Source of the DNA: an uncultured Solirubrobacteraceae bacterium
Lineage (GTDB): Bacteria > Actinomycetota > Thermoleophilia > Solirubrobacterales > Solirubrobacteraceae
DNA length: 64,000 bases
NCBI GenBank assembly: GCA_963771085.1
Contig: CAVYSB010000002.1
Span: forward strand, 448,917-512,916
Direction of reading: 5' to 3'
Part shown: positions 4,890 to 35,688 of the stretch, one piece after another
Numbering within the stretch: position 1 is the first letter of the stretch
How the letters are laid out: each line of letters opens with the position of its first letter
Translations under genes and position numbers: made by a program
Notes under the pieces: model-generated
What the model saw: only the letters and a program-made list of their open reading frames with translations
Database searches by the model: none
Told to the model about the DNA's origin: nothing

Positions 4890-4951
4890 GATTCGAACCC
4901 TCGACCTTCGCCATGGCAAGGCGACGCTCTAGCCAGCTGAGCTACATCCGC
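4878..4951 (-). tRNA. tRNA-Gly (anticodon GCC)
   Basis: The reverse complement GCGGATGTAGCTCAGCTGGCTAGAGCGTCGCCTTGCCATGGCGAAGGTCGAGGGTTCGAATCCCTTCATCCGCT folds as a cloverleaf. The anticodon loop is TTGCCAT. CCA is not encoded. Confidence 0.9.
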
Positions 4952-20256: not shown

Positions 20257-20310
20257 CGGAGCGCTGGGTGTAGGCTCGCCCGGCCCACCTCGATCGAAAG
20301 CGGGAGCCAT

Positions 20311-20490
20311 ATGAAGAAACTGCTCGAGCTGCTCATCTGCATCCTGCACCCGGTCGCGGTGGTGCTGATCTGGATCAGCCTGCTGTTCCGCCACGACATC
20401 GGCTTCATCGCCAAGCTCACCTGGGCGGTCGTCGCCATCGTGCCGTTGATCCCGTTCGTCTACGTGCTCACGGGCAACGACTTCCTCTAG
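20311..20490 (+). CDS. small (59 aa) two-TM membrane protein, PLDc_N-like
   Basis: Hand-translated; it falls below the 60-aa cutoff of the ORF track. Sequence: MKKLLELLICILHPVAVVLIWISLLFRHDIGFIAKLTWAVVAIVPLIPFVYVLTGNDFL. A GGGAG SD lies 5 nt upstream. Third-position GC is near 100%. The W..V.IVP.I....Y.L.G tail resembles the PLD N-terminal small-protein family. Confidence 0.55.
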   Translation: MKKLLELLICILHPVAVVLIWISLLFRHDIGFIAKLTWAVVAIVPLIPFVYVLTGNDFL

Positions 20491-20924
20491 CGCCGAGCTC
20501 GAGCTCCCCGCTCCTCGGCCAGGCGCTCGGCGGCGGCCCGCGCCTCCTGGCTGTCGCGGTAGAGGGTGAGCCGCTCGATCCGGCCCGCCTCCCAGATGAA
20601 CACGGGCGCCGACTGCACCCGCAGCAGGCTGCGGCTGCCGACCGGGCGCGCGATCTGCAGGACGACGAGCCAGATCACGCCCTTGCCGAGCTCGTGCAGC
20701 TCCTCGATGCGCACCTCGTATCCCTCCAGACTGCCGAACCAGTCCTCCAGGAAGTGGCCGATCGGCCCCAGTCCTTCGTGGGAGCCCAGTCCCCAGCAGG
20801 ACACATCCCAGACCGAGTCCGGGCCGAAGCGCTCCAGCACCGCCTCGAAGTCGCGGGCGTTCAGCGCCGCGTACGTTGCGCGTACGAGCTCGACCAGATC
20901 CGTGGTCTGTTGTTCCTCCGTCAT
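20487..20924 (-). CDS. SnoaL/NTF2-like fold protein (paralog 1)
   Basis: Start at MTEEQQT (20924). VRATYAALNARDFEAVLERFGPDSVWD...GKGVIWLVV...IWEAGRIERLTLY is typical of the NTF2-like superfamily. Confidence 0.7.
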   Translation of the reverse strand: MTEEQQTTDLVELVRATYAALNARDFEAVLERFGPDSVWDVSCWGLGSHEGLGPIGHFLEDWFGSLEGYEVRIEELHELGKGVIWLVVLQIARPVGSRSLLRVQSAPVFIWEAGRIERLTLYRDSQEARAAAERLAEERGARARR

Positions 20925-20988
20925 CGCCCGCACAAGTATCCCGCAGGCGGCGCGCCCGGCGGGGCAGAGGCCGCCGGCCTGCGCCCGA

Positions 20989-21909
20989 TCAGCCGGGACA
21001 GGCGAGCTGCTGCAAGCCCTTCGCGGCCTCGGCCGTGAGCTGGCTGGTGAGGTTACGCGTCTCGCCCGGCGGCGGAACCTGGACGGCAGACTGCGGCCCG
21101 TAGCTGAGGATTTCAAAGGCCACGGCCACGTTCATGCGCCCCCCGGGCGAGCACAGCTGCATGTCGGTCTGGTAGCGCCTCAGCCGATCCCCCGAGCCGA
21201 TCCACACGTCGATCGGCAACGAAGCACTGCCCGTGACCTTCTCGAGCAGCGTGGCCGTCTTTGCGGCGCCCGCACGCTGGCTGGCGGCAACCGTGGCGGC
21301 GTAGCGATCGAGATCGACCAGCGCGTGATAGTGCGTGGTGGTTTCGCCGGCGATGCTCTCGTGCCCGAGCACCGTCACCTGCCCGCCCGCTTTCATCAAG
21401 GCGATCAGCGGACTGGGGCCGCCGGCGCTGATGCCCTCGTCCTGGCTGCCGCCGAACTCTTCCGCATAGCGATCGAGGTTGAACTCGAGCCACGGCCTGC
21501 CGGCAAACCTCGCACCGGGCAGGCCAACGACGTTCACGTAGACGAACGGGCTGCTCAGGATCTCCGTGACCGTCTGCCCGGCCACCCGCTCGGTGATCGT
21601 GCCCTGCTTGGTTCTTTCATCGATCGCGCCATCGGCTTCCAGATGCGTGCTTTCTTCGCCGTGGGTCACCGTCTCGGTCATCGCGAAGCGATACCCCGGG
21701 CCGCGCGTGGCCACGTAGGCCGCCTGCAACAGCGGGGTGTCCGAGACCGGCTTTGACCCACCGCCGGAGCCCAGTGCGACAACCACGATGCCCGCCGCGG
21801 CGAGCATCGCGAGCAGCGCCCCGATCACGACCGGCCGCCGCGCACGGGCGTCCGGGCGCGCGCCCCGAACCTCGCCTGGACGCTGGAGGTCCGCGGGCGG
21901 CTCAGTCAT
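20989..21909 (-). CDS. membrane-anchored hypothetical protein (possible LolA/LppX-like fold)
   Basis: Start at MTEPPAD (21909). One TM (PVVIGALLAMLAAAGIVVVAL) is followed by a beta-rich extracytoplasmic domain of about 250 aa. The 150-codon upstream extension of the ORF overlaps the next gene and is rejected. Confidence 0.6.
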   Translation of the reverse strand: MTEPPADLQRPGEVRGARPDARARRPVVIGALLAMLAAAGIVVVALGSGGGSKPVSDTPLLQAAYVATRGPGYRFAMTETVTHGEESTHLEADGAIDERTKQGTITERVAGQTVTEILSSPFVYVNVVGLPGARFAGRPWLEFNLDRYAEEFGGSQDEGISAGGPSPLIALMKAGGQVTVLGHESIAGETTTHYHALVDLDRYAATVAASQRAGAAKTATLLEKVTGSASLPIDVWIGSGDRLRRYQTDMQLCSPGGRMNVAVAFEILSYGPQSAVQVPPPGETRNLTSQLTAEAAKGLQQLACPG

Positions 21910-22012
21910 CCGCCACCTGCACGATTGCGAGCCCGCATCGACCGCACCATACCCCCGGTGTCGGCATCCACCCCCGGCGGCTGGAGGAACCTGGCCGAAT
22001 GTCGAGCCTCGC

Positions 22013-22420
22013 CTACTCCGCCAGCCCCACGGCGTCGAGGGCCAGCTCCTTGGAGCCGAAGTCCTCCCAGCGAGCGATCTTCCCATCGCGGAACTCATAG
22101 ATGCCGGCCGAGGCGATGTCCGTCTCGATGCCGCTGCCTTTCGCCCGAACGTGAACCTCGCCCCAGGCGAGGACCCGCTCGCCGAGATCGAGCAGCTGGT
22201 AGCGCAGCTCGAACTTCTCGAAGATCTCGCGGGTGTCCGCGATGAACTGCTCCATCCCGGCGAGCCCTCGATAGGCCCCCTCGGTGGCCGATCGGCGAGG
22301 CACATGTTCCACGTCGGGATGGCAGTACAGAGCGAGATTCGCCGCCGGCGCGTCGCCACTCCACGCCCGATTCCACTCCTCGATGCTGCGGCGCACCAGC
22401 TCGAGGTTCTCCCGCGACAT
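22013..22420 (-). CDS. SnoaL/NTF2-like fold protein (paralog 2)
   Basis: NLELVRRSIEEWNR...YCHPDVEH...GERVLAWGEVHVRAKGSGIE...YEFRDGKIARWEDF fits a ketosteroid-isomerase-like pattern. Confidence 0.7.
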   Translation of the reverse strand: MSRENLELVRRSIEEWNRAWSGDAPAANLALYCHPDVEHVPRRSATEGAYRGLAGMEQFIADTREIFEKFELRYQLLDLGERVLAWGEVHVRAKGSGIETDIASAGIYEFRDGKIARWEDFGSKELALDAVGLAE

Positions 22421-22458
22421 TGTCTACTCGGCCAGGCGTCGGGGCGGGCCGATCACGT

Positions 22459-22878
22459 CTACGCAAGCCCCGCGGCGAGGCGCTCGGCGGTAGCACGGGC
22501 CTTGTCGAGATCTTCATCGCCCGTGGCGTTTCTAATCAGCCCTCCAGCCCATACGAGCACCAGCCCAAAGCGCAGGCCTGGTTCGCTGACGCCGTCAACC
22601 GGAGGTCTCGTGTTCGCGAGCACGCACAGGACAACGCCGTTGCCGACGTCGGTGATGCTCTCCGCCTGCACATCGAACCCCTCGTAGGCGGAGGCCCATC
22701 GTTCGAGGAACACCCTGATCTCCGCAGCCCCCTCGAAGTTCGTCTCCAGCACCTCCGAGATCCACACCGCGTCGGCGGCGAACAGCGAGAGCACGCCATC
22801 GAAGTCGCGGCGCACCACCGCGTCAACGGCACGCCGTGTGAGCTCGGCCGGGTCGGGCGTCGTGGGCTCCTCAGACAT
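22459..22878 (-). CDS. SnoaL/NTF2-like fold protein (paralog 3)
   Basis: LTRRAVDAVVRRDFDGVLSLFAADAVW...NGVVLCVL...VLVWAGGLI has the same architecture as 20487..20924. Confidence 0.7.
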   Translation of the reverse strand: MSEEPTTPDPAELTRRAVDAVVRRDFDGVLSLFAADAVWISEVLETNFEGAAEIRVFLERWASAYEGFDVQAESITDVGNGVVLCVLANTRPPVDGVSEPGLRFGLVLVWAGGLIRNATGDEDLDKARATAERLAAGLA

Positions 22879-23290
22879 GACACGCAGTATCTCGCACAGA
22901 TCCCACCGGGGGCTTGATCGGGGCGAGGGCCGAGGCGCACCCTCAGCCGCGAGTTCACGGCTGCGAGCGGCGGCATCGTCGCTTCGAGCTTAGTCCGCGT
23001 CTCGTTGGCTAGCTCGCTGCGGGGCTCCTGAGATGTGGACGGCCTAGGCATCGAGACGTTGCCCTCTGCCTTGTTGCCGGCGACTTGGGCGTGGTCGATG
23101 GCGATGGCAGCTTGCCGAGAAGCTCACGGAGGTCGACGACTTCGCGGGGGTGGTCGAGTTGCCACCGCTGTCACTCCGTTTGGGCATCACCGGCAACGGC
23201 TTCATCTAGGCCTTCGACTCGGTCGGGGCTCATCGGAGTTCGGCCGCTGCGGACCGCACGCCGAGGCGTGCGTAGTCCCCCCACGCGCGC

Positions 23291-24322
23291 GTGCGGCCTT
23301 CTGCGGTTGGCGGAGCGCGCCGAAGACCGTATGGTCGTCACGTTCCCGTCGAGAAGGAGGCGAAGACGTCGCGGGCCGCCTCACCGCTGGCCGCCGCCGC
23401 AGACGCCACTCGTGCGCTGAGGGGAGCCGCCCTGCTCGCCCCGGCCCTCGCGGCGGTGCTCCTCCCGGGCTCGGCCGGCGCGAGCCGTCTGACTATGGGC
23501 AGCGCCACTCGCTCGCCGCTGCCCATAGTCAGGCGGGTATCGCCCCGCTACGGCCTCCCCGGCGCCACGGTGAGCATCAGCGGGGTGAACTTCGCTGAAG
23601 CCACTGCCGTCAGCTTCGGCTTCGCCAGTGCCAGCTTCACGCTCGAATCGCCGACCTCGATCGCCGCGATCGCCCCTCCAGGCACAGGTAAGGTGCGCGT
23701 GACGGTGGCTACTCCGGCCGGCAGCAGTCCGCCGAACGGGCGCGCCGTGTTCATCTACCAGCCACCGCCGATAGTGAAGAGGCTGTTTCCGCGCAGGGGA
23801 GGCGACACCGCCGGCGGAACTAGCGTCCTCATCCACGGGAAGAACTTCACCGGGGCCACCGCCGTGCACTTCGGCCCTGCCGAGGCCACGAGTTTCACGG
23901 TGGGCGGCTCGGAGATCGACGCCATCGCCCCTCCTGGAACAGGTGTGGTGTTCGTCACCGTGACCACGCCGACGGGCACCAGCGCGGCGGGCCCGGGCGA
24001 CGCCTTCCGCTACAAGCCGCTGCCCATACTCAAGCGGCTGTTCCCGTCGCAGGGGCCCGCCACCGGCGGGACGACCGTGACCATCAAGGGCAAGTCCATC
24101 GTGGGAGCCACAGCTGTCGATTTCGGGGTGATCGGCGCGGCAAGCTTCGTGGTCAAGTCCAAGACCACGATCATCGCGGTCAGCCCTCCGGGCTCGGGCA
24201 CCGTGGACGTGACCGTGGTGACTCCCCTGGGCACGACCGCCGTGGTCCCCGGAGATCGCTTCAGCTATGAACCGATCCTCGCCGACCTGAGCCTCGGCGG
24301 CAACCGCGATCGTCTCGAATGA
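23291..24322 (+). CDS. secreted protein with three tandem IPT/TIG domains
   Basis: Signal peptide (ALLAPALAAVLLPGSAGA) followed by three repeats of about 84 aa, P(I/L)(V/L)KRLFP..G...GGT.V.I.G.NF.GATAV.FG......F.V.S...I.A..PPG.G.V.VTV.TP.G. The start codon is uncertain. Confidence 0.8.
   Translation: MRPSAVGGARRRPYGRHVPVEKEAKTSRAASPLAAAADATRALRGAALLAPALAAVLLPGSAGASRLTMGSATRSPLPIVRRVSPRYGLPGATVSISGVNFAEATAVSFGFASASFTLESPTSIAAIAPPGTGKVRVTVATPAGSSPPNGRAVFIYQPPPIVKRLFPRRGGDTAGGTSVLIHGKNFTGATAVHFGPAEATSFTVGGSEIDAIAPPGTGVVFVTVTTPTGTSAAGPGDAFRYKPLPILKRLFPSQGPATGGTTVTIKGKSIVGATAVDFGVIGAASFVVKSKTTIIAVSPPGSGTVDVTVVTPLGTTAVVPGDRFSYEPILADLSLGGNRDRLE
23516..24274 (+). repeat. three in-frame tandem coding repeats of about 250 bp (IPT/TIG domains)
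   Basis: Repeat boundaries at about 23516, 23765, 24020 and 24274, taken from the protein periodicity. Confidence 0.75.
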
Positions 24323-24426
24323 CTTGTTGAGGTTACTTCGCCTATCGGCAGCATCCCGTTGGCCCCGGCCGCGTCCTGGTCGGCGCGGCGTAGAAGTTGC
24401 TCTGCGAGATCCTGCTCGCTCGCCAT
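24265..24426 (-). pseudogene. HEPN-domain toxin remnant (N-terminal ~50 aa only)
   Basis: MASEQDLAEQLLRRADQDAAGANGML resembles the first helix pair of HEPN toxins from HEPN/MNT modules. The frame then degenerates and overlaps the IPT/TIG gene end. Confidence 0.35.
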
Positions 24427-24451
24427 CAGGCGACTAGCTCCCGGCCGCCCG

Positions 24452-24667
24452 TCAGTGCCCGTGAATGAGGCTGCCGCGCACGTCGCGCCACTCTTGCACC
24501 CTGTGCTCGCTCGCAACGATGATGTCCATCGGGACCAGCACGTCCGCCAGTACTCTCCGCAGCTGCACCGACTCCAAAGCCGGATTCTCGACCTCCGGCT
24601 CGATCACCAAGCATTCCACATCGCCGTCCCGCGTCAGCTCCCCACGCGCAGCCGAGCGCAGGCTCAC
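24452..24667 (-). pseudogene. MNT-type nucleotidyltransferase (antitoxin) remnant, N-terminally truncated
   Basis: SAARGELTRDGDVECLVI...VPMDIIVASEHRVQEWRDVRGSLIHG matches the GS.aRGe...SD(I/V)DLLV ... vP(V/I)D(I/L)IV...e......gSL pattern. About 25-30 N-terminal residues are missing, exactly at the att repeat. Confidence 0.45.
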
Positions 24668-24687
24668 TCCGGGACAGGGACTCGAAC
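24666..24687. repeat. distal att copy: 22-bp direct repeat ACTCCGGGACAGGGACTCGAAC (displaced tRNA-Gln 3' end)
   Basis: Perfect identity with 34865-34886. The flanking bases differ on both sides. Confidence 0.9.
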
Positions 24688-24828
24688 TGTGGGCAGCGGA
24701 TCGCGCAATCCCTGTGTCAGAGCCAAATATGGCTCCAGTGCAGGCGAAACGCCCGATCGCTCATCCGGCCGAGTCCGGCTGAATCCGCCCGAATCAGTAC
24801 ACGACTGGCCCAAGATTGGCCCGAGCTT

Positions 24829-26046
24829 TCACCCCACGAGCCTGAGCGCCGGACGCTTCCCGTCGCCTGCCAGATAGGCGTTCGCGGCAGCCGCCGCCTC
24901 GTCCAGGCCGCCGGGCATCAGGTGGCCGTAGGTGTCGAACGTCATGGCAATCGTCGCGTGGCCCATGATGACGCTCAGCGCCTTCGCGTTCACGCCCGCG
25001 GCGATCAACAGCGACGCGCAGGTGTGCCGCGCCTCATGCAGCGTGATCGGCTGCTGTGCGTCGTCTCGCACCTTGGCGAGGATCGTCCTTGGACCATCCG
25101 CTTCCTCGTTCGGGACTTCCTGCCAGCCCCACGCCACGAGCGCGTTCCGCCGGATGGTTTCCGGGTTGAAGGGCTCGGCGGCGGTCCTGCCGAACACCAG
25201 CGCGTCGCTAGAGCCTTCGGTGCGGAGCTTGTGCGCGGCCAGCTCCCCCGCGAGCGGCTCGAGGATCGGCACCCGCCGGTTGCCCGCAGCACTCTTCACC
25301 GGCTGCTCGCGCTCGATCGCATCCCAGCCCCGCGAGACGTGGATCACGCGGGCCGCCAGGTCGACGTCGCCCCAGCGCAGCGCACGCAGCTCCCCGCGCC
25401 GCAAGCCGGCGTAGAACGCGCACGCCCACAGCGCCCGCTCGCCCTCGGCGATAGCAGCGATGAGCGCCGCCGCCTCGGTAGGGTCGGCGATCCGCTCCCG
25501 CCGACCGTCGGGCCGGCGTAGCTCAAGCCGCTCGGTCGGGTCGGCCGTGACCTCTTCGTCGCGGATCGCACGCCGGTAGATGACGCGCAGCGGGTCAAGC
25601 GTGTTCTGCACGGTGCTCGCGCTCAGCCCTTCGCTCGTCAGCCGGTTGGCGAGCTTCTGCACGTCGCGGCGCTCGACATCCGACAGGCGCATGCCGCCCA
25701 GCGTCGGCAGTAGACGTTTGTTGAGCCCGACGCTGTAGCCCCGGAGCGTCGCGGGCTTGTAGCGGGTGCCCGATGCCGTCGGGATAGAGCCGTCGCGGGC
25801 GCCGGCCATGAACGCCTCGGCGGCCTGCCGGACGGTCATGGACGTGGGCGCACGGAGCTTGCCCTTGTTCGCCGCGGCGAGCTTATCCGCCCGCCAGACC
25901 TTCGCCGCCGCCTGCGTCGGGAACGTCTTGCGCAGCTTGCAGTCGTCGCGCTTCGAGTAGACCTCGGCACGCCACGGACAGTCGCAGCGACCCTTGCCGT
26001 TGCATCCGTTGCCGTGACGTTGACGCACTCCGGTGGCCATCAGCAA
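24829..26046 (-). CDS. int: tyrosine-type site-specific integrase
   Basis: Catalytic signature recognisable: AGLRRGELRAL (Arg I), HEARHTCAS (H-x-x-R) and GHATIAMTFDTYGHL (His..Tyr). An N-terminal SAM-like domain is present. Confidence 0.92.
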   Translation of the reverse strand: MLMATGVRQRHGNGCNGKGRCDCPWRAEVYSKRDDCKLRKTFPTQAAAKVWRADKLAAANKGKLRAPTSMTVRQAAEAFMAGARDGSIPTASGTRYKPATLRGYSVGLNKRLLPTLGGMRLSDVERRDVQKLANRLTSEGLSASTVQNTLDPLRVIYRRAIRDEEVTADPTERLELRRPDGRRERIADPTEAAALIAAIAEGERALWACAFYAGLRRGELRALRWGDVDLAARVIHVSRGWDAIEREQPVKSAAGNRRVPILEPLAGELAAHKLRTEGSSDALVFGRTAAEPFNPETIRRNALVAWGWQEVPNEEADGPRTILAKVRDDAQQPITLHEARHTCASLLIAAGVNAKALSVIMGHATIAMTFDTYGHLMPGGLDEAAAAANAYLAGDGKRPALRLVG

Positions 26047-26161
26047 TCACCTCCAGACGATGCCGCGGTGTACGGTGCCGATTGCATGGGAGCTGAACCT
26101 CCTGTGTCATGCCCCCGGCCGCGACCACGGTGCGGGGGCGCTTTGCAGATAGCTCGACACG

Positions 26162-26401
26162 CTACTCCCCCACACCGACGCTTTCGGCGTGCCGGTCAAG
26201 CCAAGCCTGCAGCTCGCTGACCGGGATCAGCTTGCGGCGCCCAACACGCACGAGGCGCACGTCGGGCTCGATATGCGCGCGCCAAGTGTCCCACGACACG
26301 CCCAGCGCTTCGCATGCCTGCTCGACGCTGAGGGCGAGGGCGGCCGCGCTCTGCTTCCGGTCCGCAAGGGTGACTGCCGTACGTGGGGATATTGGGGCCA
26401 T
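26162..26401 (-). CDS. xis: excisionase-like helix-turn-helix DNA-binding protein
   Basis: LSVEQACEALGVSWDTWRAHI...VRVGRRKLIPVSELQAWLD fits the HTH_17/Xis family pattern. It sits immediately upstream of int. Start set at MAPISP. Confidence 0.75.
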   Translation of the reverse strand: MAPISPRTAVTLADRKQSAAALALSVEQACEALGVSWDTWRAHIEPDVRLVRVGRRKLIPVSELQAWLDRHAESVGVGE

Positions 26402-26675
26402 CGCGGTTACAGACCCCAACCTGCACGGACCGGCCAAGAGATTGCGTGAAGAACCGGGCGGGCGCGAATTGGCGCGCACATCTCAAACGCCCTCGAAGGG
26501 CAAAGCCGCGCGGCAGGCCACAAGCCCCTGACACCTGCGCTTCGCTCGGTCAGTCGCCCGCGCCACCAACGAGTCATCCCACCACGAAGCGCTCGACGCG
26601 ACCCCGACGGTCGACGCGTCTGGCTGCGCCACCACGCGCGCCTCGGCACGACAAAAAGCCCGTACAGACAACATG

Positions 26676-26708
26676 CACGGCTGTGCCGTGGCACAGCGAG
26701 CGCTGTGC
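26676..26708 (+). promoter_or_regulatory. candidate oriT-type paired hairpins upstream of the relaxase
   Basis: CACGGC-tgt-GCCGTG at 26676-26690 is directly followed by GCACAGCG-ag-CGCTGTGC at 26691-26708, about 45 nt before the relaxase start. Confidence 0.3.
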
Positions 26709-26753
26709 GAATTGCTTGGCCGGTTCGGCGCGTTGAGGGTCATCACCCATGTG

Positions 26754-29405
26754 ATGACTGCGGCGAGCATAGGTGCGTCTCGGGGCGGTGGGTACGCGCG
26801 CTACCTGGAGAGCAAGACGGTGGAGCCCGAGCGCGGGGACTACTACCTGACACCCGATGGGGAGATGGCGCAGGCCCCCGGCCGCTGGCTGGCCGATGCC
26901 GAGACCCTGGAGAGGCTCGGGGTTCAGGCCGGCGGGCCGGTGGATGGCGCGGACTTCATCGCGCTGATGGAGGGCCATCACCCAGGCACCGGCCGGTGGC
27001 TTCGTCCGGAGGGCGCCGGCGGCGGCCGGGGCGGCGGGATCGACGTGACGTTCAGCGCACCGAAGTCCGTCTCGACCGTATGGGCGCTCGGCGACCCGTG
27101 GCAGCGCGAGCAGATCGAGCAGGCCCATGCCAGGGCGGTCGAGCAGACCATCCACCATCTGCGAGAGCAGGTGCCCGTCGTGCGGCGTCGCTACAGCGGC
27201 CAGGTCGTGGAAGAGCACGCCAAGGACGTGATCGCCACCGAGTACCGACACACCACCGCCCGCGGAGTCCAGGGCGCCCAGGCCCCAGACCCGCAGCTGC
27301 ACAGTCATGTCGTGATCACCGGCGCTGTCCGCGAGGACGACCGGATTGTGGCGGTCGCGTCGCGGCCGATCTTCCGCTCAGCACGGGAGATGGGCGCGTT
27401 TTACCGCACCGCGCTCGCCGACGAGCTCGTGCGGGAGGGATACACGATCGAGCAGGGCACCGGCAAGGATGGCCGGTACTTCGAGATCGCCGGTGTCCCC
27501 CACGAGCTTTGCCAGGCGTTCTCCGGTCGCTCCCGTGAGGTCGCACGCGCCGCGGAGCGCTTCCGTGCCCGCTACGGCCGGGCACCCGAACGCGGCGAGC
27601 TTCGTAACCTCGCGCTCGAGAACCGCCGGTCCAAGGAGCTGACCACACGCTCTGACCTACAACGAGTGTGGACACAGACCGCTCGCGATCACGGATTCGG
27701 CCCGGATGAGGCGGTGCGACTGATCGGTGCATCCGAGCGGCCAATGGCCGAGCGCGCGATCGAGGATCGGGTCGAGGCGAAGCTGACCGAGCAGCACGCC
27801 GTCTTCCAGGAGCGCGACCTGCGCGCGATCGTGCTGGAGCAGGCCGCCGGGGAGATGGCGCCGGATCAGGCGCTTGCCGTCGCCCGGGAGATGGTCCGCG
27901 ACCGGCGCGTGCTCACGCTGGAGGGCGGACGCATGACCACCCTCGCGGTTCGCGCGCAGGAGCAGGCGATCGAGCGCCGCGCCGCACAGCTCGCCCAACC
28001 CGCAGGCCGAGACGTCGGCCACGTCGCACGCGATAACGCTGCGCGTGAGGCAGCCGAGCGCATCGGCGGACCACTCAGCCCCGAGCAACACCACGCGCTC
28101 GCAGTCCTCACTGGTCCTGAGCGCGCCGCGGTCCTCGTCGGGCCGGCGGGGACCGGCAAGGGTGTGGTGATCGACGCCGCCGCCCGTGCGGAGCAGTACG
28201 CCGGGCGGGAGACGATCGGGGTCGCGGTGTCCGGGTCCACCGCAGAGCGGCTCGGCGCGGACAGCCCTGCGCTCGCCGGGCAGACACTCACTCTGGACTC
28301 GCTGGTAGCCCGCGCGAACACGGGGGCCATCCACGTCGGCAGGGACACAACAGTAATCCTGGACGAGGCGGGGATGGTCGACCACAAGCGCCTCGACGCG
28401 CTGACCGGGCTGGTGGAGCGCTCCGGGGTGAAGCTGATCGCTGTCGGCGACGGCAAGCAGCTCCCCTCGATCGGCCCCGGCGGCATGTTCGACCGGCTCA
28501 CCGGCCACGCACCCAGCGCCGAGCTCGCAGACATCCACCGGACCAAGGACCCCGCCGACCAGCGCACATGGCAAGCACTACGCGCAGGAGAACCCGAGCG
28601 CGCGATGGCGCATTACGTCTCACGCGGCGAGCTTCACCTCTCCGATACCCGCGACCAGGCGGCAGAGCAAGCCGTACAAACATGGGCCACCCTCACGGAG
28701 GGGCGCGATATCCGCGAGGTCGCGTTGATCGCCGACGCCTCCAACCAGGAGATCGACCGGCTCAACGCCCGCGCCCAACACCTACGCGCACAGCGCGGCG
28801 AACTCGGACACCACGAGACCCCGCTACCCGGCGTCCACTACGGCCTACGCGAAGGCGACCTCATCGCCTTCACCGCGCAGCATCGCCCGCGGGGGCAGCC
28901 GCGGGTCGAGAACGGCACCCGTGGACAGGTCAGCGCCATCCACGAGCGAGGCGTGACCGTCACCCTCGACGGATCGCAGCGCAGAGTCCAGCTCGCCGGC
29001 GAGGACGTGGAGTCGCTGAGGCTCGCGTACGCGCAGCATGTCTACCGCCAACAGGGCGCGACCGTCGAGCGCTCCGTTGTCCTGACCGGCGGCTGGCAGA
29101 CCAGCAAGGAGACCGCCTACGTCGAGGCAACCCGCGCCCGACACGGCACCGACTGGTACATCGCCCGCGAGGACCTCGGCGAGGAAGGACAGGACTCCGA
29201 GCGCATCCAACGCCTCGCAGCCAGCATGGGACGAAGTCGCGCGCAAACCCCATCACTCGCGCACCCCGAGCTACCCGACCCGGAATACGGCCGCGGCTAC
29301 ACGCGCCCGATCGCGCCCAGCCGCCGCAGCCGGATACCGGGGATCGCCCGCGCCATCAACCGCATCGCCCAACCCGGTCGAACACCGGAACGTCTAGTTC
29401 GCTGA
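26754..29405 (+). CDS. MOBF-type conjugative relaxase (TrwC/TraA-like) fused to a RecD-like helicase
   Basis: Relaxase motifs: YARYLES...GDYYL, DVTFSAPKSVS and YRHTTARG...DPQLHSHVVI (His triad). Helicase motifs: VGPAGTGKG, VILDEAGMV and LIAVGDGKQLPSIGPGG. Confidence 0.9.
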   Translation: MTAASIGASRGGGYARYLESKTVEPERGDYYLTPDGEMAQAPGRWLADAETLERLGVQAGGPVDGADFIALMEGHHPGTGRWLRPEGAGGGRGGGIDVTFSAPKSVSTVWALGDPWQREQIEQAHARAVEQTIHHLREQVPVVRRRYSGQVVEEHAKDVIATEYRHTTARGVQGAQAPDPQLHSHVVITGAVREDDRIVAVASRPIFRSAREMGAFYRTALADELVREGYTIEQGTGKDGRYFEIAGVPHELCQAFSGRSREVARAAERFRARYGRAPERGELRNLALENRRSKELTTRSDLQRVWTQTARDHGFGPDEAVRLIGASERPMAERAIEDRVEAKLTEQHAVFQERDLRAIVLEQAAGEMAPDQALAVAREMVRDRRVLTLEGGRMTTLAVRAQEQAIERRAAQLAQPAGRDVGHVARDNAAREAAERIGGPLSPEQHHALAVLTGPERAAVLVGPAGTGKGVVIDAAARAEQYAGRETIGVAVSGSTAERLGADSPALAGQTLTLDSLVARANTGAIHVGRDTTVILDEAGMVDHKRLDALTGLVERSGVKLIAVGDGKQLPSIGPGGMFDRLTGHAPSAELADIHRTKDPADQRTWQALRAGEPERAMAHYVSRGELHLSDTRDQAAEQAVQTWATLTEGRDIREVALIADASNQEIDRLNARAQHLRAQRGELGHHETPLPGVHYGLREGDLIAFTAQHRPRGQPRVENGTRGQVSAIHERGVTVTLDGSQRRVQLAGEDVESLRLAYAQHVYRQQGATVERSVVLTGGWQTSKETAYVEATRARHGTDWYIAREDLGEEGQDSERIQRLAASMGRSRAQTPSLAHPELPDPEYGRGYTRPIAPSRRSRIPGIARAINRIAQPGRTPERLVR

Positions 29406-30867
29406 GCGGAGATGCCTCACAAGGTCTTTGGCGAGCTCGCGCTGCATCCTCAGTCCCCTGCGCAGCCTCGGCCCACTCTCTGAGCTGATCAGCCCATGGC
29501 ACCGGAACGCCGACGGCCTCGCTGAAAACCGCCAGCCCACCAAGGAACAGCCTTTCGAAGTGCTCAAGCGCGTCGCGCGCGCCCAGTTCCAGGGCGGCGA
29601 AGACGAGCTGGGCGAAGGTCCAGTAGGCGGTATGAAGCACGTGGAATGAGCTTGGACCCATCGGCTCTTCCGCCATGGCAAGCGGACCCGCGGTCATGCG
29701 TCTGAGCGCTGCGTATTGCTGCTCGAGGATGGGCTGCTCGCCGCGCAGCCGCGGGTGGAACTCCTCGGCGCCGGCGAGACGCTTGACGAGTACTTCGACG
29801 GTGAGCGGATCGCCGTTACGGTCAATGCTCCACCAGAGCTGTTCGGCATATGGGCCAAATTGCTCGCGCAACTCCTGCTCGCGGCCGGCGAGGTCTGAGA
29901 TGTCGTAGGCCGATGCGCTCGCGCCAGGGGCATTTGCGAAGTGAAGGCGCAACGCGTTTCCATGCGCCTTGTGCTGCTCAATCAGCCACTCGGGGTTGTC
30001 CTTGTACAGCACGAGCCAGTGGGCGACCAGCATATCCTCGAACAGGGATTCGGTGAGTGACGCGGCCTGCGCGGTGCGCCCCATCTGTGCCAGGGGAATG
30101 ATCGTCTCGTAGGTGGCGCGGGCGCGGATGAGCGTGGCGACGACGAGCAGTTCGAGGGGCGTCGAAGGCTCCCACGTGCCGTCATCAATGAACTTCGTGA
30201 GGAAGGCGCACACATCAGCGAGCATGTCGAGCATGCCAGGAGCGAGCTGCTCGGCTCCGTCGTCCTGCTGGGACTCGCCGGGCTCGTAGCGTTCGTTCCA
30301 CAGCGCCCCGGGCTCGATATCCGCCGTGGAATGGATCGCCCCCATGTAGGACATGAGCTCGGAGACGTGCACCGGCAGGATGTGGAGCGGCTCGCCGACC
30401 TCGAACCAGCGAAGCGCTTCGCAGCGCCCTGTGTTGCCCGTGCTCGCGATGCCGCGGTGATGGACGATGTCGTTACGCATGCGGTTGATGTCAGCCATTG
30501 CCGCGTCCTTCAGCTCGTTCTTCTCGATTCCGAGCGCCTTTGCGATCAGTGCGCGGTAATGGTCATTCCACTTGGAGGCAACCATGACGATCCACTGCTG
30601 CCCGAGCGCTCGGACGACCGGCCCCTCGGGAGCGAGCCGCTCGGCGAGTGTCCTGATCGGCCAGCGCTGATATGCGAGACCCTCTTGGCTATTGGGGTTC
30701 CCGTGCCCGACGAACAGCGTTGAGTCGGCGCTTGGCGCCTTGAGCGTCCTAGCGAACTCCGCCATCTTGATAATGCCGGTGAGCGCCATCGCGTGGATGC
30801 CGGCGATGTTGTTGAGCTCGTCAATGAACTCGTTCGTGAGCCTGACGGACTGCTCGTTCTCGTCCAT
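29356..30867 (-). CDS. hypothetical protein with a HEPN-type Rx4H motif (N-terminal) and a long helical C-terminal domain
   Basis: 503 aa with clean coding statistics. DINRMRNDIVHHRG (RNDIVH encoded at 30460-30477) fits the HEPN RN-xxx-H signature. The C-terminal half (LIRARATYETIIPLAQMG..FEDMLVAHWLVLYKDNPEWL) is helical and reminiscent of DUF5677/Abi-like domains (from memory). Confidence 0.7.
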   Translation of the reverse strand: MDENEQSVRLTNEFIDELNNIAGIHAMALTGIIKMAEFARTLKAPSADSTLFVGHGNPNSQEGLAYQRWPIRTLAERLAPEGPVVRALGQQWIVMVASKWNDHYRALIAKALGIEKNELKDAAMADINRMRNDIVHHRGIASTGNTGRCEALRWFEVGEPLHILPVHVSELMSYMGAIHSTADIEPGALWNERYEPGESQQDDGAEQLAPGMLDMLADVCAFLTKFIDDGTWEPSTPLELLVVATLIRARATYETIIPLAQMGRTAQAASLTESLFEDMLVAHWLVLYKDNPEWLIEQHKAHGNALRLHFANAPGASASAYDISDLAGREQELREQFGPYAEQLWWSIDRNGDPLTVEVLVKRLAGAEEFHPRLRGEQPILEQQYAALRRMTAGPLAMAEEPMGPSSFHVLHTAYWTFAQLVFAALELGARDALEHFERLFLGGLAVFSEAVGVPVPWADQLREWAEAAQGTEDAARARQRPCEASPLSELDVPVFDRVGRCG

Positions 30868-30968
30868 GTCCCGAGGCTAGCGCGCGCGCCGCGGCGTGAG
30901 AGAGCAGACCTGCATCGGACTGACCTTCGAGTTGCCACCTACGTGACGGTTTGGCCTTCCCGTAAGGT

Positions 30969-32087
30969 TTGGTGGTGGACGCAATCTATCTCCGGCACGG
31001 CAACGAGTTCGTTGCGATGCACGAGCGGCCATATGAGGCTGAGGCCGTGCTACAGGTGCTGTTGGCTGATCACCCGGAGATTCTTGCCGGCGGCGAACCG
31101 GGAGACGAGGGCCACGGCTGGGTGCTGGTCAGGCGTGAGCCGGGGGTGCCGGACGCTGAGGGTGCAGCCGACCGGTGGGCGCTGGATCATCTGTTCTTGG
31201 ATGCAGCGGGCGTGCCAACGCTGGTGGAGGTCAAGCGCAGCTCCGACACTCGTGCCAGGCGTGAGGTGGTCGCGCAGATGCTCGACTACGCGGCGAACGC
31301 GACCGCTTTCTGGAGGGTCGATTCGCTGCAGGCCTGGTTTGAGGCTGAGTGCGAACGTCATGGGACCGACAGCGCCGTCGCGCTCGAGACGGCTTTTGGC
31401 ACGATCGACCCGAGCGGCTATTGGGAGAGGGTGCAAACAAATCTCGCTGCGGATCGGATACGGCTCGTGTTCGTCGCCGACGAGATCGCCCCCGAGCTTC
31501 GCAGCATCGTGGAGTTCCTCAACCGGCAGATGAGCGAGACCGAGGTCCTTGCGATCGAGGTCAAGCAGTACGTAGACACCGAGGGAGAGCGCCAGACGAT
31601 CGTGCCCCGTGTGGTGGGCCAAACCGAGGCAGCGCGCGCGGCAAAGGGCACGCGCTCACGGGCCGGCGGTCCCGCGTTCGACCTGGCGACCGCGCCGGCC
31701 GATGTCCGCGAGCTGATCGAAAAGATGGACCGTCTAGCCGGCGAACTCGGCCTCACGGTCAGATCTGCACGCACGGGACGCAACTACCAGCCGCAAATAT
31801 TGGAGTCGGGCGTCAAATACACAAGTGGTATCGGGGTCTACGCCAGCGGGCGTGGCGCGGAGTTCAACCTCTCGGTCTTCAGGGAACTTGGGGCGAACGA
31901 GGTCGCCGATGGACTCCTGCAGCGCCTCCGTGAGGTCACTGACGTGAAGGTCGATGCGCCCTCCTGGCCAGCCGTCCCGTGCCAAACGCTAGTCGGGGAC
32001 TGGGATCGCGTCCGCTCGCAGCTCATCTTGCCGTATTTTCACGCTCGCCGCGAGCTCTCAGAAGAAGATCGGCAAGCTGGAAGGTGA
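30969..32087 (+). CDS. hypothetical protein with an N-terminal PD-(D/E)xK (NucS/DUF91-like) nuclease-type core
   Basis: 372 aa. VLQVLLADHPEIL...WALDHLFLDAAGVPTLVEVKRSSD..REVVAQMLDYA (D..D..EVK encoded at 31185-31235) is followed by IRLVFVADEIAPELRSIVEFLN. The C-terminal ~150 aa are unassigned. GTG start is uncertain. Confidence 0.65.
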   Translation: MVVDAIYLRHGNEFVAMHERPYEAEAVLQVLLADHPEILAGGEPGDEGHGWVLVRREPGVPDAEGAADRWALDHLFLDAAGVPTLVEVKRSSDTRARREVVAQMLDYAANATAFWRVDSLQAWFEAECERHGTDSAVALETAFGTIDPSGYWERVQTNLAADRIRLVFVADEIAPELRSIVEFLNRQMSETEVLAIEVKQYVDTEGERQTIVPRVVGQTEAARAAKGTRSRAGGPAFDLATAPADVRELIEKMDRLAGELGLTVRSARTGRNYQPQILESGVKYTSGIGVYASGRGAEFNLSVFRELGANEVADGLLQRLREVTDVKVDAPSWPAVPCQTLVGDWDRVRSQLILPYFHARRELSEEDRQAGR

Positions 32088-32163
32088 CGGATCGCGAGGA
32101 CCGAGCAACCCACCAGCGCGACCGCCGTGCGGTAGAGCCGGGCACCGGCTGGTCGGGCTTTGA

Positions 32164-33096
32164 TCATTCTGGCACTTCAATCGTGTAGCCCCCGGGTGTC
32201 CGACACACATGGACTATGCCGCCTTCAATGTGCAGCACAGCAGGCGTGTCGCCAAGCGCTCGACAGTTGCCTTCCCACTGTTTGAGACGTTCGCGTTCTT
32301 CGCGTTCCAGCTGGCGTTGCCCTTCTCGGAACTGGCGTTCGTTGTCTTCGCGCTCTACCTGAACCGCGTGCCGCAGGAAGCGGCAGCGAACTGTTGTAAC
32401 CGGCCGGAATGTGCCCCGCCTGATGAGCGTCTTGCCGACGTTGCTACGAGCCGATACGGTGAAGTGATAGGTGCTGCCGGGGCGGCTGCAGGTCCACGGG
32501 ATCCGCAACGTCCATGCCGGTTCTTCTCGCTGTAGCTCAAGGTGTTCCGTACGATGTCCGTATCGCACAAGCTGGATCGTGAGGTAGGCGAATGACACAG
32601 CCGTAATGCGGAGCGTCGTGTAGCCCGGACGGCGGAAGGCCCCATCGCACGCTTGTCTGCACGTTGCCGCGTGCGGAACAGCCGTCACGGACAGATTTCT
32701 TATCGGTTCGCTGAGGGCCTTTGTCCTGGCTTCGCCTTCTTCTGCCCGGAGACGGGCTTCATCCGCAGCGCCGATTTCTTTCCGGGCTGTTTCGACAGCA
32801 GGCGGCGGACCGCAGAGACTCTCGTCCAGTCCTTCGGATTCGAAGGAGGTTTTGGTCTCGTCTGCGACTTCGATCCATTCTCGGCAGGTGAGTCCTGCGC
32901 AAGACTTTCCCCATTCGGACGGGAACGACGCCTTCTCGGACGCTTCAACCGCTCCTCGACACGCCGTCTGGTCTGAGGCTGCTCCCGCAGGCAGGGCTGC
33001 GAGCGCGGCAAGAGCCGCGATGGCCGCCATGACCAACTTGTTCGGGATCCATCGACGGCGCTCGCGTCGGACGCGGTTCGGTGTCATTGGCGTCAT
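32164..33096 (-). CDS. secreted Cys-rich hypothetical protein
   Basis: Signal peptide (LVMAAIAALAALAALPAGAAS), a charged coiled segment and about 10 Cys. This is the lowest-GC part of the island. No family recognised. Confidence 0.55.
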   Translation of the reverse strand: MTPMTPNRVRRERRRWIPNKLVMAAIAALAALAALPAGAASDQTACRGAVEASEKASFPSEWGKSCAGLTCREWIEVADETKTSFESEGLDESLCGPPPAVETARKEIGAADEARLRAEEGEARTKALSEPIRNLSVTAVPHAATCRQACDGAFRRPGYTTLRITAVSFAYLTIQLVRYGHRTEHLELQREEPAWTLRIPWTCSRPGSTYHFTVSARSNVGKTLIRRGTFRPVTTVRCRFLRHAVQVEREDNERQFREGQRQLEREERERLKQWEGNCRALGDTPAVLHIEGGIVHVCRTPGGYTIEVPE

Positions 33097-33182
33097 TCCC
33101 TCCCGTACTGGTTGCCGGACGGTGGAGGTCGCCCTCCAGGCCAGTCTCGATCTTATCCTTCACTCATCGCCTTTGGCCATGA

Positions 33183-33401
33183 GGTCCGCGAGACGCGAGC
33201 CTTGCCGCCGGCATGGCGACGCCCGACGAGACACAGCGCAAGGTCATGAATCTCTTTCAGGGTGCCTACGCCGTGTTGCGCACTCCGGCCGGGCACCGCG
33301 AGGTTGACTACGACGATGTCACCGAGACATCAGAGGCAGTCGCAACTGCAAGCCTGCTCATGCGTATCCTTGATCGAGTCGAGCAGCGCCTTTCTCGCTG
33401 A
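33183..33401 (+). pseudogene. C-terminal fragment of a TIGR02391/Ymh-type (HEPN-clan) protein
   Basis: NLFQGAYAVLRTPAGHREVDYDD..EAVATASLLMRILDRV matches the family C-terminus (f.Ga...iRNp.aH......eA......asllLr.ld). The frame is closed by a TGA at 33180-33182, so only about 70 aa remain. Confidence 0.5.
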
Positions 33402-33897
33402 CGATCACACGCCGGCTCGCCTCGGTCGCGTCTGCCAGCAGACCGGTGTGGGATCTACAGGCTTCGCACCGTAGGCGGGACTTGGACCAGAATTAGGTCG
33501 GGGGTGCCTCGGCCTAACGAAAGCCCACTGGAGGTCGAGCGGCCTCGCGCGCGGCGTCGATCTCCTTTGCCGTGATGTTCTGATCGAGTGCGATCGCTTC
33601 GATCAGACCCCCGGCGTAACCTCCGAGCTGACGCAGCAGGACGGCTGCTGTCCTCGCCACCGGCTGGTTGTGAAGGGCGATCTGAGGAATATGGACTACT
33701 CGCAGGTTAACTCCGACGATTAGGGAAATCTTGGAGAAATCCTGAGCGCCCTCGCCTTCGTCGTTTCAGGCGAGCGAAAGACGTCGTAGGCGCCCTCGCC
33801 GCCATCGAACTCGCTCAGATCACTCACGCCGAGTCCAACCATTGCCGTGCCTTCGCCCCATCAGAGGGAAATCGAGCCGGGTGGACGGGCACCCGGG

Positions 33898-34230
33898 CTA
33901 TGCCGCGTGAACCACGACCGGCGGAGCGCCGTTCGCCTCGGCCGCCGGGATCAGGTGGTACTGCACGACGAAGCCAAGGCTCTCCGCGTAGCGATCGACG
34001 GTCGAGATCTTCGCATCGGCCGCTGTGCTCTCCAGGCGCGCGACGAAGGACTGCGAGGTCTCCATCGCCGCGGCGATCACGGTCTGCGAGCGCTTCTGCT
34101 CCTCACGCTGCCCGGCCAGAGCACGCAGCAACTCACGCCGCCGGCGAGCGGCATCCAGCAGCCGCGGAAACTCGGGGTTTCGCGCGGCGCGCTTGTCGAT
34201 CATCTTGTCTAGGAAGTCGCGCTCGGGCAT
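33898..34230 (-). CDS. XRE-family HTH antitoxin (HigA-like)
   Basis: RSQTVIAAAMETSQSFVARLESTAADAKISTVDRYAESLGF is an XRE HTH. It lies immediately downstream of the RelE/HigB-like gene. Confidence 0.75.
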   Translation of the reverse strand: MPERDFLDKMIDKRAARNPEFPRLLDAARRRRELLRALAGQREEQKRSQTVIAAAMETSQSFVARLESTAADAKISTVDRYAESLGFVVQYHLIPAAEANGAPPVVVHAA

Positions 34231-34304
34231 GGGCCTTGCCTACTCTCTGAATGGGCATCGATACCTACAGCGGTATCTCTTTTGAGAGATAAGAGTAGCA
34301 CCTC

Positions 34305-34746
34305 TCACTGATGCAGCGGACGCCTGCCGCGCGCAACGCGCTTCTGATCCCCACGCCGCCGCCAATCCGCAAGACGTCTCTTCGCCAGCTCGATAGTGGC
34401 CGGGGGCGTCTTCTGCGTCTTCTTGTTGAACCCGTCCAAGCGCCAGCAGGATCTGTCCGCGGCTGCCTTCCTCCGCAAGCAGGATGCGGTAGATGACCCG
34501 ATCGCCGTCCACTCTGACCTCCCAGATGTCGCCGTCAAGATGACGGGCGGCTCGCAGGCCCCGATCGCGAACCTCCTCCATGCCCGCAAGCACGGCCGCC
34601 GCATCGGAATCGGAGAGCTTGTCGATGAACCCTTCGACCGGACTACGACCCGATGGGGTCTTGTAGTCGCGCCAGCGCCGCCGAATCGGAGGCGGCCCAC
34701 CGGCAGCAGAGTCGGTCTTCTCCCTGGATCGCTTCGCTGGAGCCAT
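34305..34746 (-). pseudogene. frameshifted RelE/ParE-superfamily toxin (HigB / phage Gp49-like)
   Basis: The N-terminal part (PSGRSPVEGFIDKL...IWEVRVDGDRVIYRILLAEEGSRGQILLAL) is in one frame. The conserved tail GFNKKTQKTPPATIELAKRRLADW is in another frame (ORF 34305..34922). The frame switch lies near 34435-34440. Confidence 0.75.
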
Positions 34747-34864
34747 CGAACGAGCTTATGCAGCGCCTCGGACCGAGCACTCTTGGTCAACAGGACTGGC
34801 CCAAATCCTGGCCCGAGCAACCCCTTGAAACGCAAAACGCCCCGTAAACACGGGGCGCAAGCGA

Positions 34865-34886
34865 ACTCCGGGACAGGGACTCGAAC
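34865..34886. repeat. proximal att copy (inside tRNA-Gln)
   Basis: ACTCCGGGACAGGGACTCGAAC, identical to 24666-24687. Confidence 0.9.
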
Positions 34887-34937
34887 CCCAAACTCGTGCT
34901 CCAGAGGCACGCGTGTTGCCAATTACACCATCCCGGA
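34866..34937 (-). tRNA. tRNA-Gln (anticodon CTG)
   Basis: The reverse complement TCCGGGATGGTGTAATTGGCAACACGCGTGCCTCTGGAGCACGAGTTTGGGGTTCGAGTCCCTGTCCCGGAG folds as a cloverleaf with anticodon loop CTCTGGA. CCA is not encoded. Confidence 0.88.
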
Positions 34938-35010: not shown

Positions 35011-35688
35011 TCACAGCTTGGCGGCCTGCCCGTTGGGCGCGAAGTAGGCGGTGATCGCGTCCTCGAGGCCCACATCGAGCACGAGCAGCACCTCATCGCC
35101 GGCCTGGATCACGGTGTCGGGCTTGGGCACGAAGCCCGAGCCCGCGCGCAGCACCGAGATGATCAGGCTGCCCTCGGGCAGGACGATGTCAGAGACCTTT
35201 TCGCCGACCGTGGGCGCGTCCTCGCTGACCTCCAGCTCGATGATCTCCAGGCGCTCCTCTTCGAGTGCGAGCAGGTGCACGAGGCCGTAGCGGGGGACCT
35301 CGTGCTCGATCAGGCGCAGGATCAGATCGGTGGCCGAGACCGCCGGCTGGATCCCCAGCAGGCGGAAGTGGTCGTGGTTGCGGGGGTTGTTGACGCGCGC
35401 GATGATGCGGTCGCAGAGGTACTTCTCCTTGGCGACCTGGCAGACGAGGATGTTGTCCTCGTCGTCGCCGGTGACCGCGATGACCAGGTCCGCGCGCTGG
35501 ATGCCCGCGCGCTCCAGCACCCACAGCTCGGTCGCATCGCCGTAGTGCACAGCATGCTCGAGCTCCTCCTCGACGACCAGGTAGCGCGAGCGCGATGACT
35601 CGATCACGGTCACTTCGTGGCCCTTGCTGATCAGCTCGCGCGCGAGGTTGCGCCCCACCTTGCCCGCGCCGACGATGATCGCGTACAC
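35011..35688 (-). CDS. trkA: Trk-system K+ uptake protein TrkA (TrkA-N + TrkA-C)
   Basis: MYAIIVGAGKVGRNLARELISKGHEVTVIE is the NAD-binding GxGxxG motif. A C-terminal RCK_C domain is present. Confidence 0.9.
   Translation of the reverse strand: MYAIIVGAGKVGRNLARELISKGHEVTVIESSRSRYLVVEEELEHAVHYGDATELWVLERAGIQRADLVIAVTGDDEDNILVCQVAKEKYLCDRIIARVNNPRNHDHFRLLGIQPAVSATDLILRLIEHEVPRYGLVHLLALEEERLEIIELEVSEDAPTVGEKVSDIVLPEGSLIISVLRAGSGFVPKPDTVIQAGDEVLLVLDVGLEDAITAYFAPNGQAAKL

Follow-up and report, generated by a model that had tools for sequence, protein, structure and literature searches.

A probable integrative mobilizable element at the 3′ end of tRNA-Gln(CTG) in an uncultured Solirubrobacterales lineage

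The stretch analysed here (hereafter the window) comprises 64,000 nucleotides of the chromosome of an uncultured Solirubrobacteraceae bacterium (GenBank assembly GCA_963771085.1, contig CAVYSB010000002.1, positions 448,917 to 512,916) and contains an element of about 10.2 kb at the 3′ end of a tRNA-Gln(CTG) gene. This element is very probably an integrative mobilizable element (IME) that has integrated site-specifically into the chromosome of a member of the Solirubrobacterales (Thermoleophilia, Actinomycetota). In the canonical definition, an IME provides its own excision and integration functions as well as its own relaxase, and carries no coupling protein or mating-pore genes (Guedon et al. 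2017, PMC5704250). An integrative element had already been proposed at this position by a model that worked from the letters without database searches (hereafter the sequence-only reading). This interpretation is supported by the present analysis, with refinements concerning the class of the element (an IME), the limits of its cargo, a left flank that carries a relic, and a 1-bp insertion in a toxin gene.

Insertion at tRNA-Gln and the empty site in close relatives

The element is bounded by the 22-bp sequence ACTCCGGGACAGGGACTCGAAC, which occurs exactly twice in the window (Table 1). Allowing up to three mismatches adds no further copy, and shuffled sequences give an expectation of zero; the perfect direct repeat described in the sequence-only reading is thereby reproduced. 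ARAGORN and Rfam agree that the second copy is the 3′ part of an intact tRNA-Gln, as had likewise been claimed. On the tRNA strand the repeat reads GTTCGAGTCCCTGTCCCGGAGT and covers the T-loop, the 3′ half of the T-stem, the 3′ strand of the acceptor, the discriminator and a single base beyond it. Measured from the start of one repeat to the end of the other, the region is 10,221 bp long; the element proper between the cores accounts for 10,199 bp.

An empty attB in related genomes had been named beforehand as a check on this assignment. Two short metagenome-assembly contigs from close relatives, L001 and L002, were retrieved with the exact sequence of the TrkA-type protein that is encoded just past the tRNA (35011-35688, minus strand). 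L001 matches the window from 36792 to 34855 at 98.1% identity and then jumps to 24687-24334, which it matches at 98.6%. In L002, the TrkA side is 96.5% identical and the stretch corresponding to 24687-23536 is 99.8% identical; the flanks of the two contigs are approximately 96-99.9% identical to those of the window. Both contigs show the same order, i.e. TrkA, tRNA-Gln with a single copy of the 22-mer, and directly thereafter GAGCCTGCGCTCGGC..., the sequence found to the left of 24666. Because L001 and L002 show the empty attB, the two repeats are true attL/attR sites and the 10.2 kb between them represent an insertion. Relative to its close relatives, the window thus carries a 10.2-kb insertion with a 22-bp duplication that regenerates the tRNA gene, and the site-specific integration proposed earlier is borne out.

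The windowed GC content is 0.61-0.66 over approximately 29.5-34.7 kb as compared to 0.68-0.74 in the backbone and the flanks. The lower GC content that the sequence-only reading had ascribed to cargo at about 29.4-33.9 kb was thus recovered, with the cargo occupying ~29.4-33.8 kb. The last 1.1 kb next to the tRNA do not belong to it, as they hold the toxin-antitoxin genes of the conserved backbone. A Rfam scan returned the tRNA as the only RNA, and a sigma-70 promoter scan returned no promoter within the element.

Table 1 Features of the element and of its boundaries, in window coordinates (a slash within a sequence marks the predicted nick)
Feature	Position	Strand	Remarks
Truncated nucleotidyltransferase gene, 5′ end missing	24452-24667	minus	71-codon open reading frame; 24452-24665 lie outside the element, on the chromosomal side of attB
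Distal 22-bp att core	24666-24687	minus	Other boundary of the element; chromosome resumes at 24665 in the empty-site alignment
Candidate integrase arm-type site (TGGCCCRA octamer pair)	24803-24826	plus	115 bp from the core, just past the int stop codon
Tyrosine integrase	24829-26046	minus	Open reading frame of 405 aa; called form 403 aa, ATG at 26040
Excisionase-type helix-turn-helix protein (candidate Xis/recombination directionality factor)	26162-26401	minus	79 aa; directly upstream of int, co-oriented
Candidate oriT, inverted repeat followed by nic-like motif	26660-26705	minus	Reads 5′-GCTCGCTGTGCCACGGCACAGCCGTGCATGTTGTCT/GTACGG; predicted nick 26666/26665
MobF (TrwC-type) relaxase fused to RecD-like helicase	26754-29405	plus	883 aa; open frame from 26673; divergent from xis
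Cargo protein, 503 aa	29356-30867	minus	C-terminal half DUF5677-like; weak PF18928 match
Cargo protein, 372 aa, PDC-S11-like	30969-32087	plus	PADLOC candidate defence gene, E=7e-11
Cargo protein, 310 aa	32164-33096	minus	N-terminal hydrophobic segment; coding status less sure (GC content at third codon positions 0.64)
Hypoth_Ymh-type gene fragment	33213-33401	plus	C-terminal third only; PF09509 profile positions 70-119 of 119
XRE-type helix-turn-helix protein, HigA-like antitoxin and/or element regulator	33898-34230	minus	HTH_31, HTH_3; PHROG_1373
Gp49/HigB-like toxin gene	34305-34746	minus	1-bp insertion near 34440; Gp49 profile split over two frames
Second candidate arm-type site	34794-34818	plus	46 bp from the core; same orientation as the first
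Terminator-like hairpin GCGCCCCGTGTTTACGGGGCGT, followed by T-rich run	34837-34858	minus	7 nt downstream of the tRNA 3′ end; supplied by the element
tRNA-proximal 22-bp att core	34865-34886	minus	Last 21 nt of the tRNA plus 1 base
tRNA-Gln(CTG), intact, integration target	34866-34937	minus	ARAGORN; Rfam tRNA, 57.3 bits

Gene content and class of the element

Next to the distal repeat lie an integrase gene and an excisionase-type gene, in agreement with the sequence-only reading. The integrase matches PF00589 (Phage_integrase, E=1e-17, 64.8 bits) together with SAM-like domains, as well as PHROG_1 (integrase, E=3e-62). Its HEARHT and YGH motifs align with the catalytic region of the Tn1549 integrase (HxxR...Y), as expected for a tyrosine recombinase. 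The exact 403-aa protein also occurs on other contigs, with 100% identity in at least three other species-level genomes, and phage integrases aligning over most of its length are at most ~29% identical to it. The excisionase candidate, called as a 79-aa protein in relatives too, scores 30.0 bits with PF12728 (HTH_17) against a cut-off of 27, and 28.4 bits with TIGR01764 against 28.8, that is, 0.4 bits below. As both genes are full length, the element has an integration/excision module of its own.

The TrwC/MOBF relaxase-helicase reported earlier between the repeats is equally well founded, with 201.7 bits for the MobF family of NCBIfam (NF041492) against a cut-off of 100, and matches to PF08751 (TrwC, E=5e-65) and AAA_30. 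The relaxase domain aligns with the structure of R388 TrwC (E=3e-21), including the DYY tyrosines and the HxxxxxxHxH triad. The protein thus shows the MOBF architecture, i.e. an N-terminal TrwC domain with tyrosine pair and histidine triad, and a C-terminal helicase. According to tblastn, the closest plasmid MobF relaxases are less than 32% identical; as plasmid relaxases and phage integrases are this distant from the proteins of the window, the lineage is poorly sampled. The Walker A motif of the helicase, GPAGTGKG (28170-28193), has GKG and not the canonical GK[T/S]. This motif is kept in 36 copies, including that of the window, which suggests a family trait.

No coupling protein, VirB4-type ATPase, FtsK/TraB, replication initiator or phage structural family was found in any open reading frame (ORF) of the element with Pfam, NCBIfam, PADLOC or PHROGs. 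A six-frame scan of the element for the Walker A consensus gave one doubtful match, in the 310-aa cargo protein, and none in the 503-aa or 372-aa proteins. Thirty flanking ORFs tested in the window returned no coupling-protein or type IV secretion system (T4SS) family; they are chromosomal housekeeping genes, among them UvrA, UvrB, H+-pyrophosphatase, PanC and DprA. When one genome per GTDB species was scanned, 72 integrase-related loci were obtained, almost all in metagenome-assembled genomes of the Solirubrobacterales/Solirubrobacteraceae, and a T4SS is present in none of the annotated contexts of the related loci. Since a relaxase is present and coupling protein and T4SS are absent, the element is assigned to the IMEs.

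Two classes of self-transmissible elements were considered and rejected. An actinomycete integrative and conjugative element (AICE) would have an FtsK/SpoIIIE-like TraB and a replication initiator, neither of which is encoded by any ORF. A T4SS-type integrative and conjugative element (ICE) would have a VirB4-type ATPase, a coupling protein and mating-pore genes, none of which was found in the element or the 30 flanking ORFs. That such genes are hidden among the unannotated cargo ORFs is very unlikely. Admittedly, no function could be assigned to the three ORFs of 503, 372 and 310 aa, and the xis-int pair by attP resembles what is generally known of the layout of pSAM2-type AICEs. Still, no FtsK/SpoIIIE, Rep, VirB4 or VirD4 family is matched, Walker A motifs are missing from the cargo apart from the doubtful one above, and 10 kb are too small for a T4SS. 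Moreover, AICEs had not been detected outside the Actinomycetales, one Bifidobacterium strain excepted (PMC3429521). Finally, the 4.4-kb cargo of the window is absent from all 72 integrase-related loci and therefore cannot be the transfer machinery of the family.

A prophage remnant or phage satellite, in which the relaxase-like gene would serve replication instead of conjugation, was rejected as well and appears scarcely credible. The 3′ ends of tRNA genes are classic prophage sites, and the integrase, the excisionase, the XRE-type helix-turn-helix (HTH) regulator and the Gp49-like toxin all have PHROG matches. However, these are the only PHROG matches, and they are confined to modules common to all integrative elements; no capsid, terminase, portal, tail, primase or packaging gene was found. 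The relaxase scores above the equivalog cut-off for MobF and is preceded by a conjugative-type hairpin and nic motif. In addition, an attP junction query composed of distal arm, core and hairpin had no match in the IMG/VR viral contigs. A single match was obtained in metagenome contigs (L089). It is a chromosomal junction, from a tandem or a relic, beside a nucleotidyltransferase-HEPN module and an ABC transporter, and not a circle. Because tandem arrays give the same junction, the attP junction pattern cannot prove excision.

Spread of the family and evidence for recent movement

Relatives of the integrase number in thousands. For 24 loci from species-representative genomes, the integrase is 95-100% identical and the int-xis DNA 94-99.6% identical, as compared to 74-88% for the tRNA/TrkA flank and 75-86% for the ABC-transporter flank. 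The backbone of the element is far more similar across these species-level lineages than the host chromosomes are, which provides strong indirect evidence for a recent horizontal spread of the family. Related complete elements, L007 (9.6 kb) and L008 (11.2 kb), lie at the same tRNA and have the same core. At least 27 further species-level loci from metagenome-assembled genomes carry both copies of the core with the tRNA beside TrkA, at element sizes between 3.1 and 11.2 kb. The conserved backbone consists of int-xis and the relaxase, to which one subgroup adds the toxin-antitoxin end, and the segment from relaxase to toxin-antitoxin genes differs in each element.

Several observations weigh against a functional IME. 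The window contains no helper conjugative system; to our knowledge, none is known for the Solirubrobacterales, and no conjugation system has been characterised in the class. Junction searches found neither an excised circle nor an attP-only molecule. Given the GKG variant of its Walker A motif, the relaxase-helicase may be atypical, and both the function of the arm-type sites and the position of the nick (see below) are predicted from sequence. The toxin gene is frameshifted, with one extra base relative to the intact genes of L007, L008 and L068, next to an intact antitoxin gene. Finally, several relatives have relaxases that are deleted or disrupted by insertion sequences (IS), and some members of the family thus are decaying.

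The frameshift, the relaxase losses and IS insertions in relatives and the lack of a circular form, together with a gene fragment in the cargo, would also suit a fixed, immobile genomic island, i.e. a decayed remnant of an integrative element that is inherited vertically only. This explanation is unlikely, as the repeats are perfect and the reading frames of int, xis and the relaxase are full length. Furthermore, the identical integrase in at least three other species-level genomes, int-xis DNA that is up to 99.6% identical where the flanks are at ~78-88%, and the empty site in close relatives all indicate recent movement. The combined data provide good indirect evidence, drawn from sequence comparison, that the IME of the window is still mobile.

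Attachment sites and terminator

The composite repeat GACTGGCCCAA-N(2-5)-TGGCCCGAGC is found only at the two octamer pairs listed in Table 1, with zero occurrences expected. In the reconstructed attP, the two TGGCCCRA pairs flank the core in the same orientation at distances of 46 bp and 115 bp. In L003, L007 and L008, the three relatives with both ends in the locus, both ends have retained octamer pairs. The paired octamers are tentatively attributed to the arm-type binding sites of the integrase.

The hairpin downstream of the tRNA is strong (9 bp, 7 of them GC). Its stem is kept and its loop varies after the tRNA in most occupied relatives; because the same stem follows the tRNA in most occupied sites, the element appears to bring a replacement terminator for the tRNA gene. 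Among relatives, the core has C for G at position 1 in distal copies, varies at position 7, and has C for T at position 22. These polymorphisms leave a 14-bp block common to every att pair examined, TCCCTGTCCCGGAG, and do not locate the point of exchange.

Candidate origin of transfer

Upstream of the relaxase gene lies a candidate origin of transfer (oriT), so that the element combines its own relaxase with a predicted site of action. In the window, the longer reading is 5′-...GCCGTGCATGTTGTCT/GTACGG, as compared to GCGCACCGAAAGGTGCGTATTGTCT/ATAGCC for the R388 substrate; the R388 nic sequence was verified against R388 itself. In R388, the essential nucleotides are 12-25, and a purine is required at position 26 (PMC4176350). 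The nic region of the window shares 11 of 14 bases with the essential GGTGCGTATTGTCT/A region of R388, has a G at position 26, and places 9 nt between hairpin and nick. On the minus strand, GCATNTNGTCTG is the most conserved non-coding stretch of the xis-relaxase intergenic region, even in relatives whose relaxases are ~65% identical, and it lies just upstream of the relaxase gene where this was checked by alignment. Among the fetched loci it occurs in 27 distinct sequence contexts as compared to ~3 expected by chance. It is preceded by hairpins, with arms that differ between subfamilies and pairing that is kept. Nicking is predicted between 26666 and 26665 on the minus strand, a well-supported inference from these comparisons.

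Two further observations concern this region. A perfect 8-bp inverted repeat, GTCATCAC-N4-GTGATGAC (26739-26758), overlaps the start codon of the relaxase gene; most relatives keep it, the most divergent ones do not, and it may be an operator. Transposases of the IS110 family are repeatedly found between xis and the relaxase gene near the candidate oriT hairpin (L008:7870-9156; L085:7946-9004; L083:15040-16314), which suggests a preferred IS110 target.

Proposed mode of transfer and comparison with known systems

In the mode of transfer proposed here, the integrase would bind the core and the paired TGGCCCRA arms on both sides of attP and recombine attP with the 3′ end of the tRNA gene, upon which the element would supply the new terminator hairpin to the tRNA. 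Integrase and HTH_17 protein together would excise the circle. Upstream of its own gene, at the R388-like ...GTGCATGTTGTCT/G, the relaxase would then nick the minus strand; the predicted cleavage sequence is 5′-CACGGCACAGCCGTGCATGTTGTCTGTACGG, cut after GTCT. Piloted by the relaxase, the single strand would make use of a co-resident conjugative element, passing through its coupling protein and its type IV secretion channel. The polarity of the predicted nick implies that the relaxase gene would be the last to reach the recipient, with int and xis leading. A HigBA-like pair would normally stabilise such an element; in the copy of the window, the toxin is frameshifted. The support for the putative mobilization in trans by a conjugative helper is indirect and consists of backbones that are nearly identical in species with diverged chromosomes.

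A more far-reaching proposal is that these MobF elements move between Solirubrobacterales species without a classical T4SS helper, via a host-encoded or unrecognised DNA translocation route, with the tRNA-Gln site acting as a self-renewing tandem array that shuffles defence cargo. Such a route would fit a GKG family of relaxase-helicases in a class in which we know of no characterised conjugation system. We consider it improbable.

Integration at tRNA 3′ ends, toxin-antitoxin modules and tandem arrays are typical IME features (Guedon et al. 2017, PMC5704250). Like the Bacteroides elements NBU1/NBU2 and the streptococcal tRNA IMEs, the element of the window is small, uses a single tyrosine integrase, sits at a tRNA 3′ end with a gene-restoring direct repeat, has its own relaxase without coupling or mating-pore genes, and shares toxin-antitoxin genes and tandem accretion with them. 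It differs from canonical IMEs in its helicase-fused MobF (TrwC-type) relaxase and in its host, an uncultured Solirubrobacterales lineage. The canonical IMEs known in 2017 had MobP, MobQ, MobV or MobC relaxases and none had MobF or MobH; only one IME was known in Actinobacteria at the time of that review (PMC5704250).

With the TrwC/oriT system of R388, the element shares the aligned relaxase domain and the oriT layout of inverted repeat, 9 nt, nick (predicted here) and subsequent purine. Unlike R388, it is chromosomal and integrative, lacks TrwA/TrwB and a T4SS, and has the GKG Walker A motif in its helicase. AICEs such as pSAM2 and SLP1 resemble it in actinobacterial host, tyrosine integrase, tRNA 3′ end, xis-int by attP and a size of ~10 kb, whereas FtsK-like TraB, Rep and spread genes are absent from the window element, whose relaxase implies a single-strand transfer logic. 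T4SS-type ICEs of Actinobacteria with MOBF relaxases likewise combine such a relaxase with a tyrosine integrase in the chromosome, but carry the T4SS and coupling-protein genes that are lacking here (Bordeleau et al. 2012, PMC3429521).

An IME at a tRNA gene is a known kind of element, and the understanding of how IMEs work is unchanged by the present example. What it provides is a cleanly delimited member of an IME family from an almost unstudied order of soil actinobacteria, with empty site, core, candidate arms and oriT, terminator and cargo slot. It also adds a MobF relaxase to the canonical IMEs, a combination listed as unknown in the 2017 review (PMC5704250). With its apparently recent spread and variable defence-like cargo, the family could be used to trace gene flow among soil Solirubrobacterales, and the int-xis-attP module is a candidate tool for integration at their tRNA-Gln.

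Cargo and toxin-antitoxin genes

The element has a single cargo slot between the relaxase gene and the toxin-antitoxin module, which in the window is loaded with the 4.4 kb of lower GC content. For the 503-aa protein only 17 homologues were found, several of them annotated as DUF5677. The 372-aa protein belongs to a family of 6330 homologues, in which the N-terminal region is conserved and the C-terminus varies. Its match to PDC-S11 covers the N-terminal half only (residues 11-205 to profile positions 11-176 of 358). The invariant residues D78, E87 and K89 (D...ExK) form a PD-(D/E)xK-like arrangement, and homologues at 91-94% identity occur in other islands with integrase and TrwC, one of which adjoins a GmrSD_N gene. 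An AlphaFold model of this protein (predicted local distance difference test score 80) gave no significant fold match in the PDB; the non-significant matches were PD-(D/E)xK nucleases, e.g. SduA and Card1. As no significant fold match was obtained, the 372-aa protein is only tentatively described as a nuclease-like defence candidate. The 310-aa protein has a 37% identical homologue within the L008 element. PDB sequence searches with the three cargo proteins returned nothing usable. Approximately 500 bp of apparently non-coding DNA follow the Hypoth_Ymh fragment.

In the adjacent backbone, the XRE-type HTH protein is 94-97% identical in related elements. An intact HigB/HigA-like operon is not present in the window, as the toxin reading frame is broken; the frameshift could be a genuine inactivation or an indel of long-read assembly.

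Tandem arrays, relics and the flanking zone

Three att cores in a row are found in L016 (1660, 11360, 12729), L027 (1953, 11360, 14070) and L018, and behind many distal cores the terminator hairpin is found once more, i.e. the proximal end of a further element. The family forms tandem arrays, and arrays and relics are common. The left flank of the window provides an example. The truncated nucleotidyltransferase is 80-90% identical to one inside the L003 (97-300) and L089 (395-600) elements, where the intact arrangement consists of core, hairpin, arm repeats and a full nucleotidyltransferase-HEPN pair. The window and the empty-site contigs lack ~200 bp of this arrangement, namely the hairpin, the arm sites and the start of the gene. 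The left flank thus is the stump of an older family member, and the present element therefore integrated at a tRNA-Gln site already carrying a relic.

The zone from the ABC transporter genes to the element (20300-24450) differs in every relative examined. In the window it holds three SnoaL-like paralogues and a protein with IPT/TIG repeats, and elsewhere a patatin, a cupin with Gp49/HTH genes, or an acetyltransferase. Former insertions at tRNA-Gln seem to have accreted in this zone. Further away, a gene for a DDE transposase (rve/rve_3, with N-terminal HTH domains; 3675-4823, plus strand) lies 55 bp from tRNA-Gly(GCC) (4878-4951, minus strand); besides the element, it is the window's other case of a mobile gene next to a tRNA.

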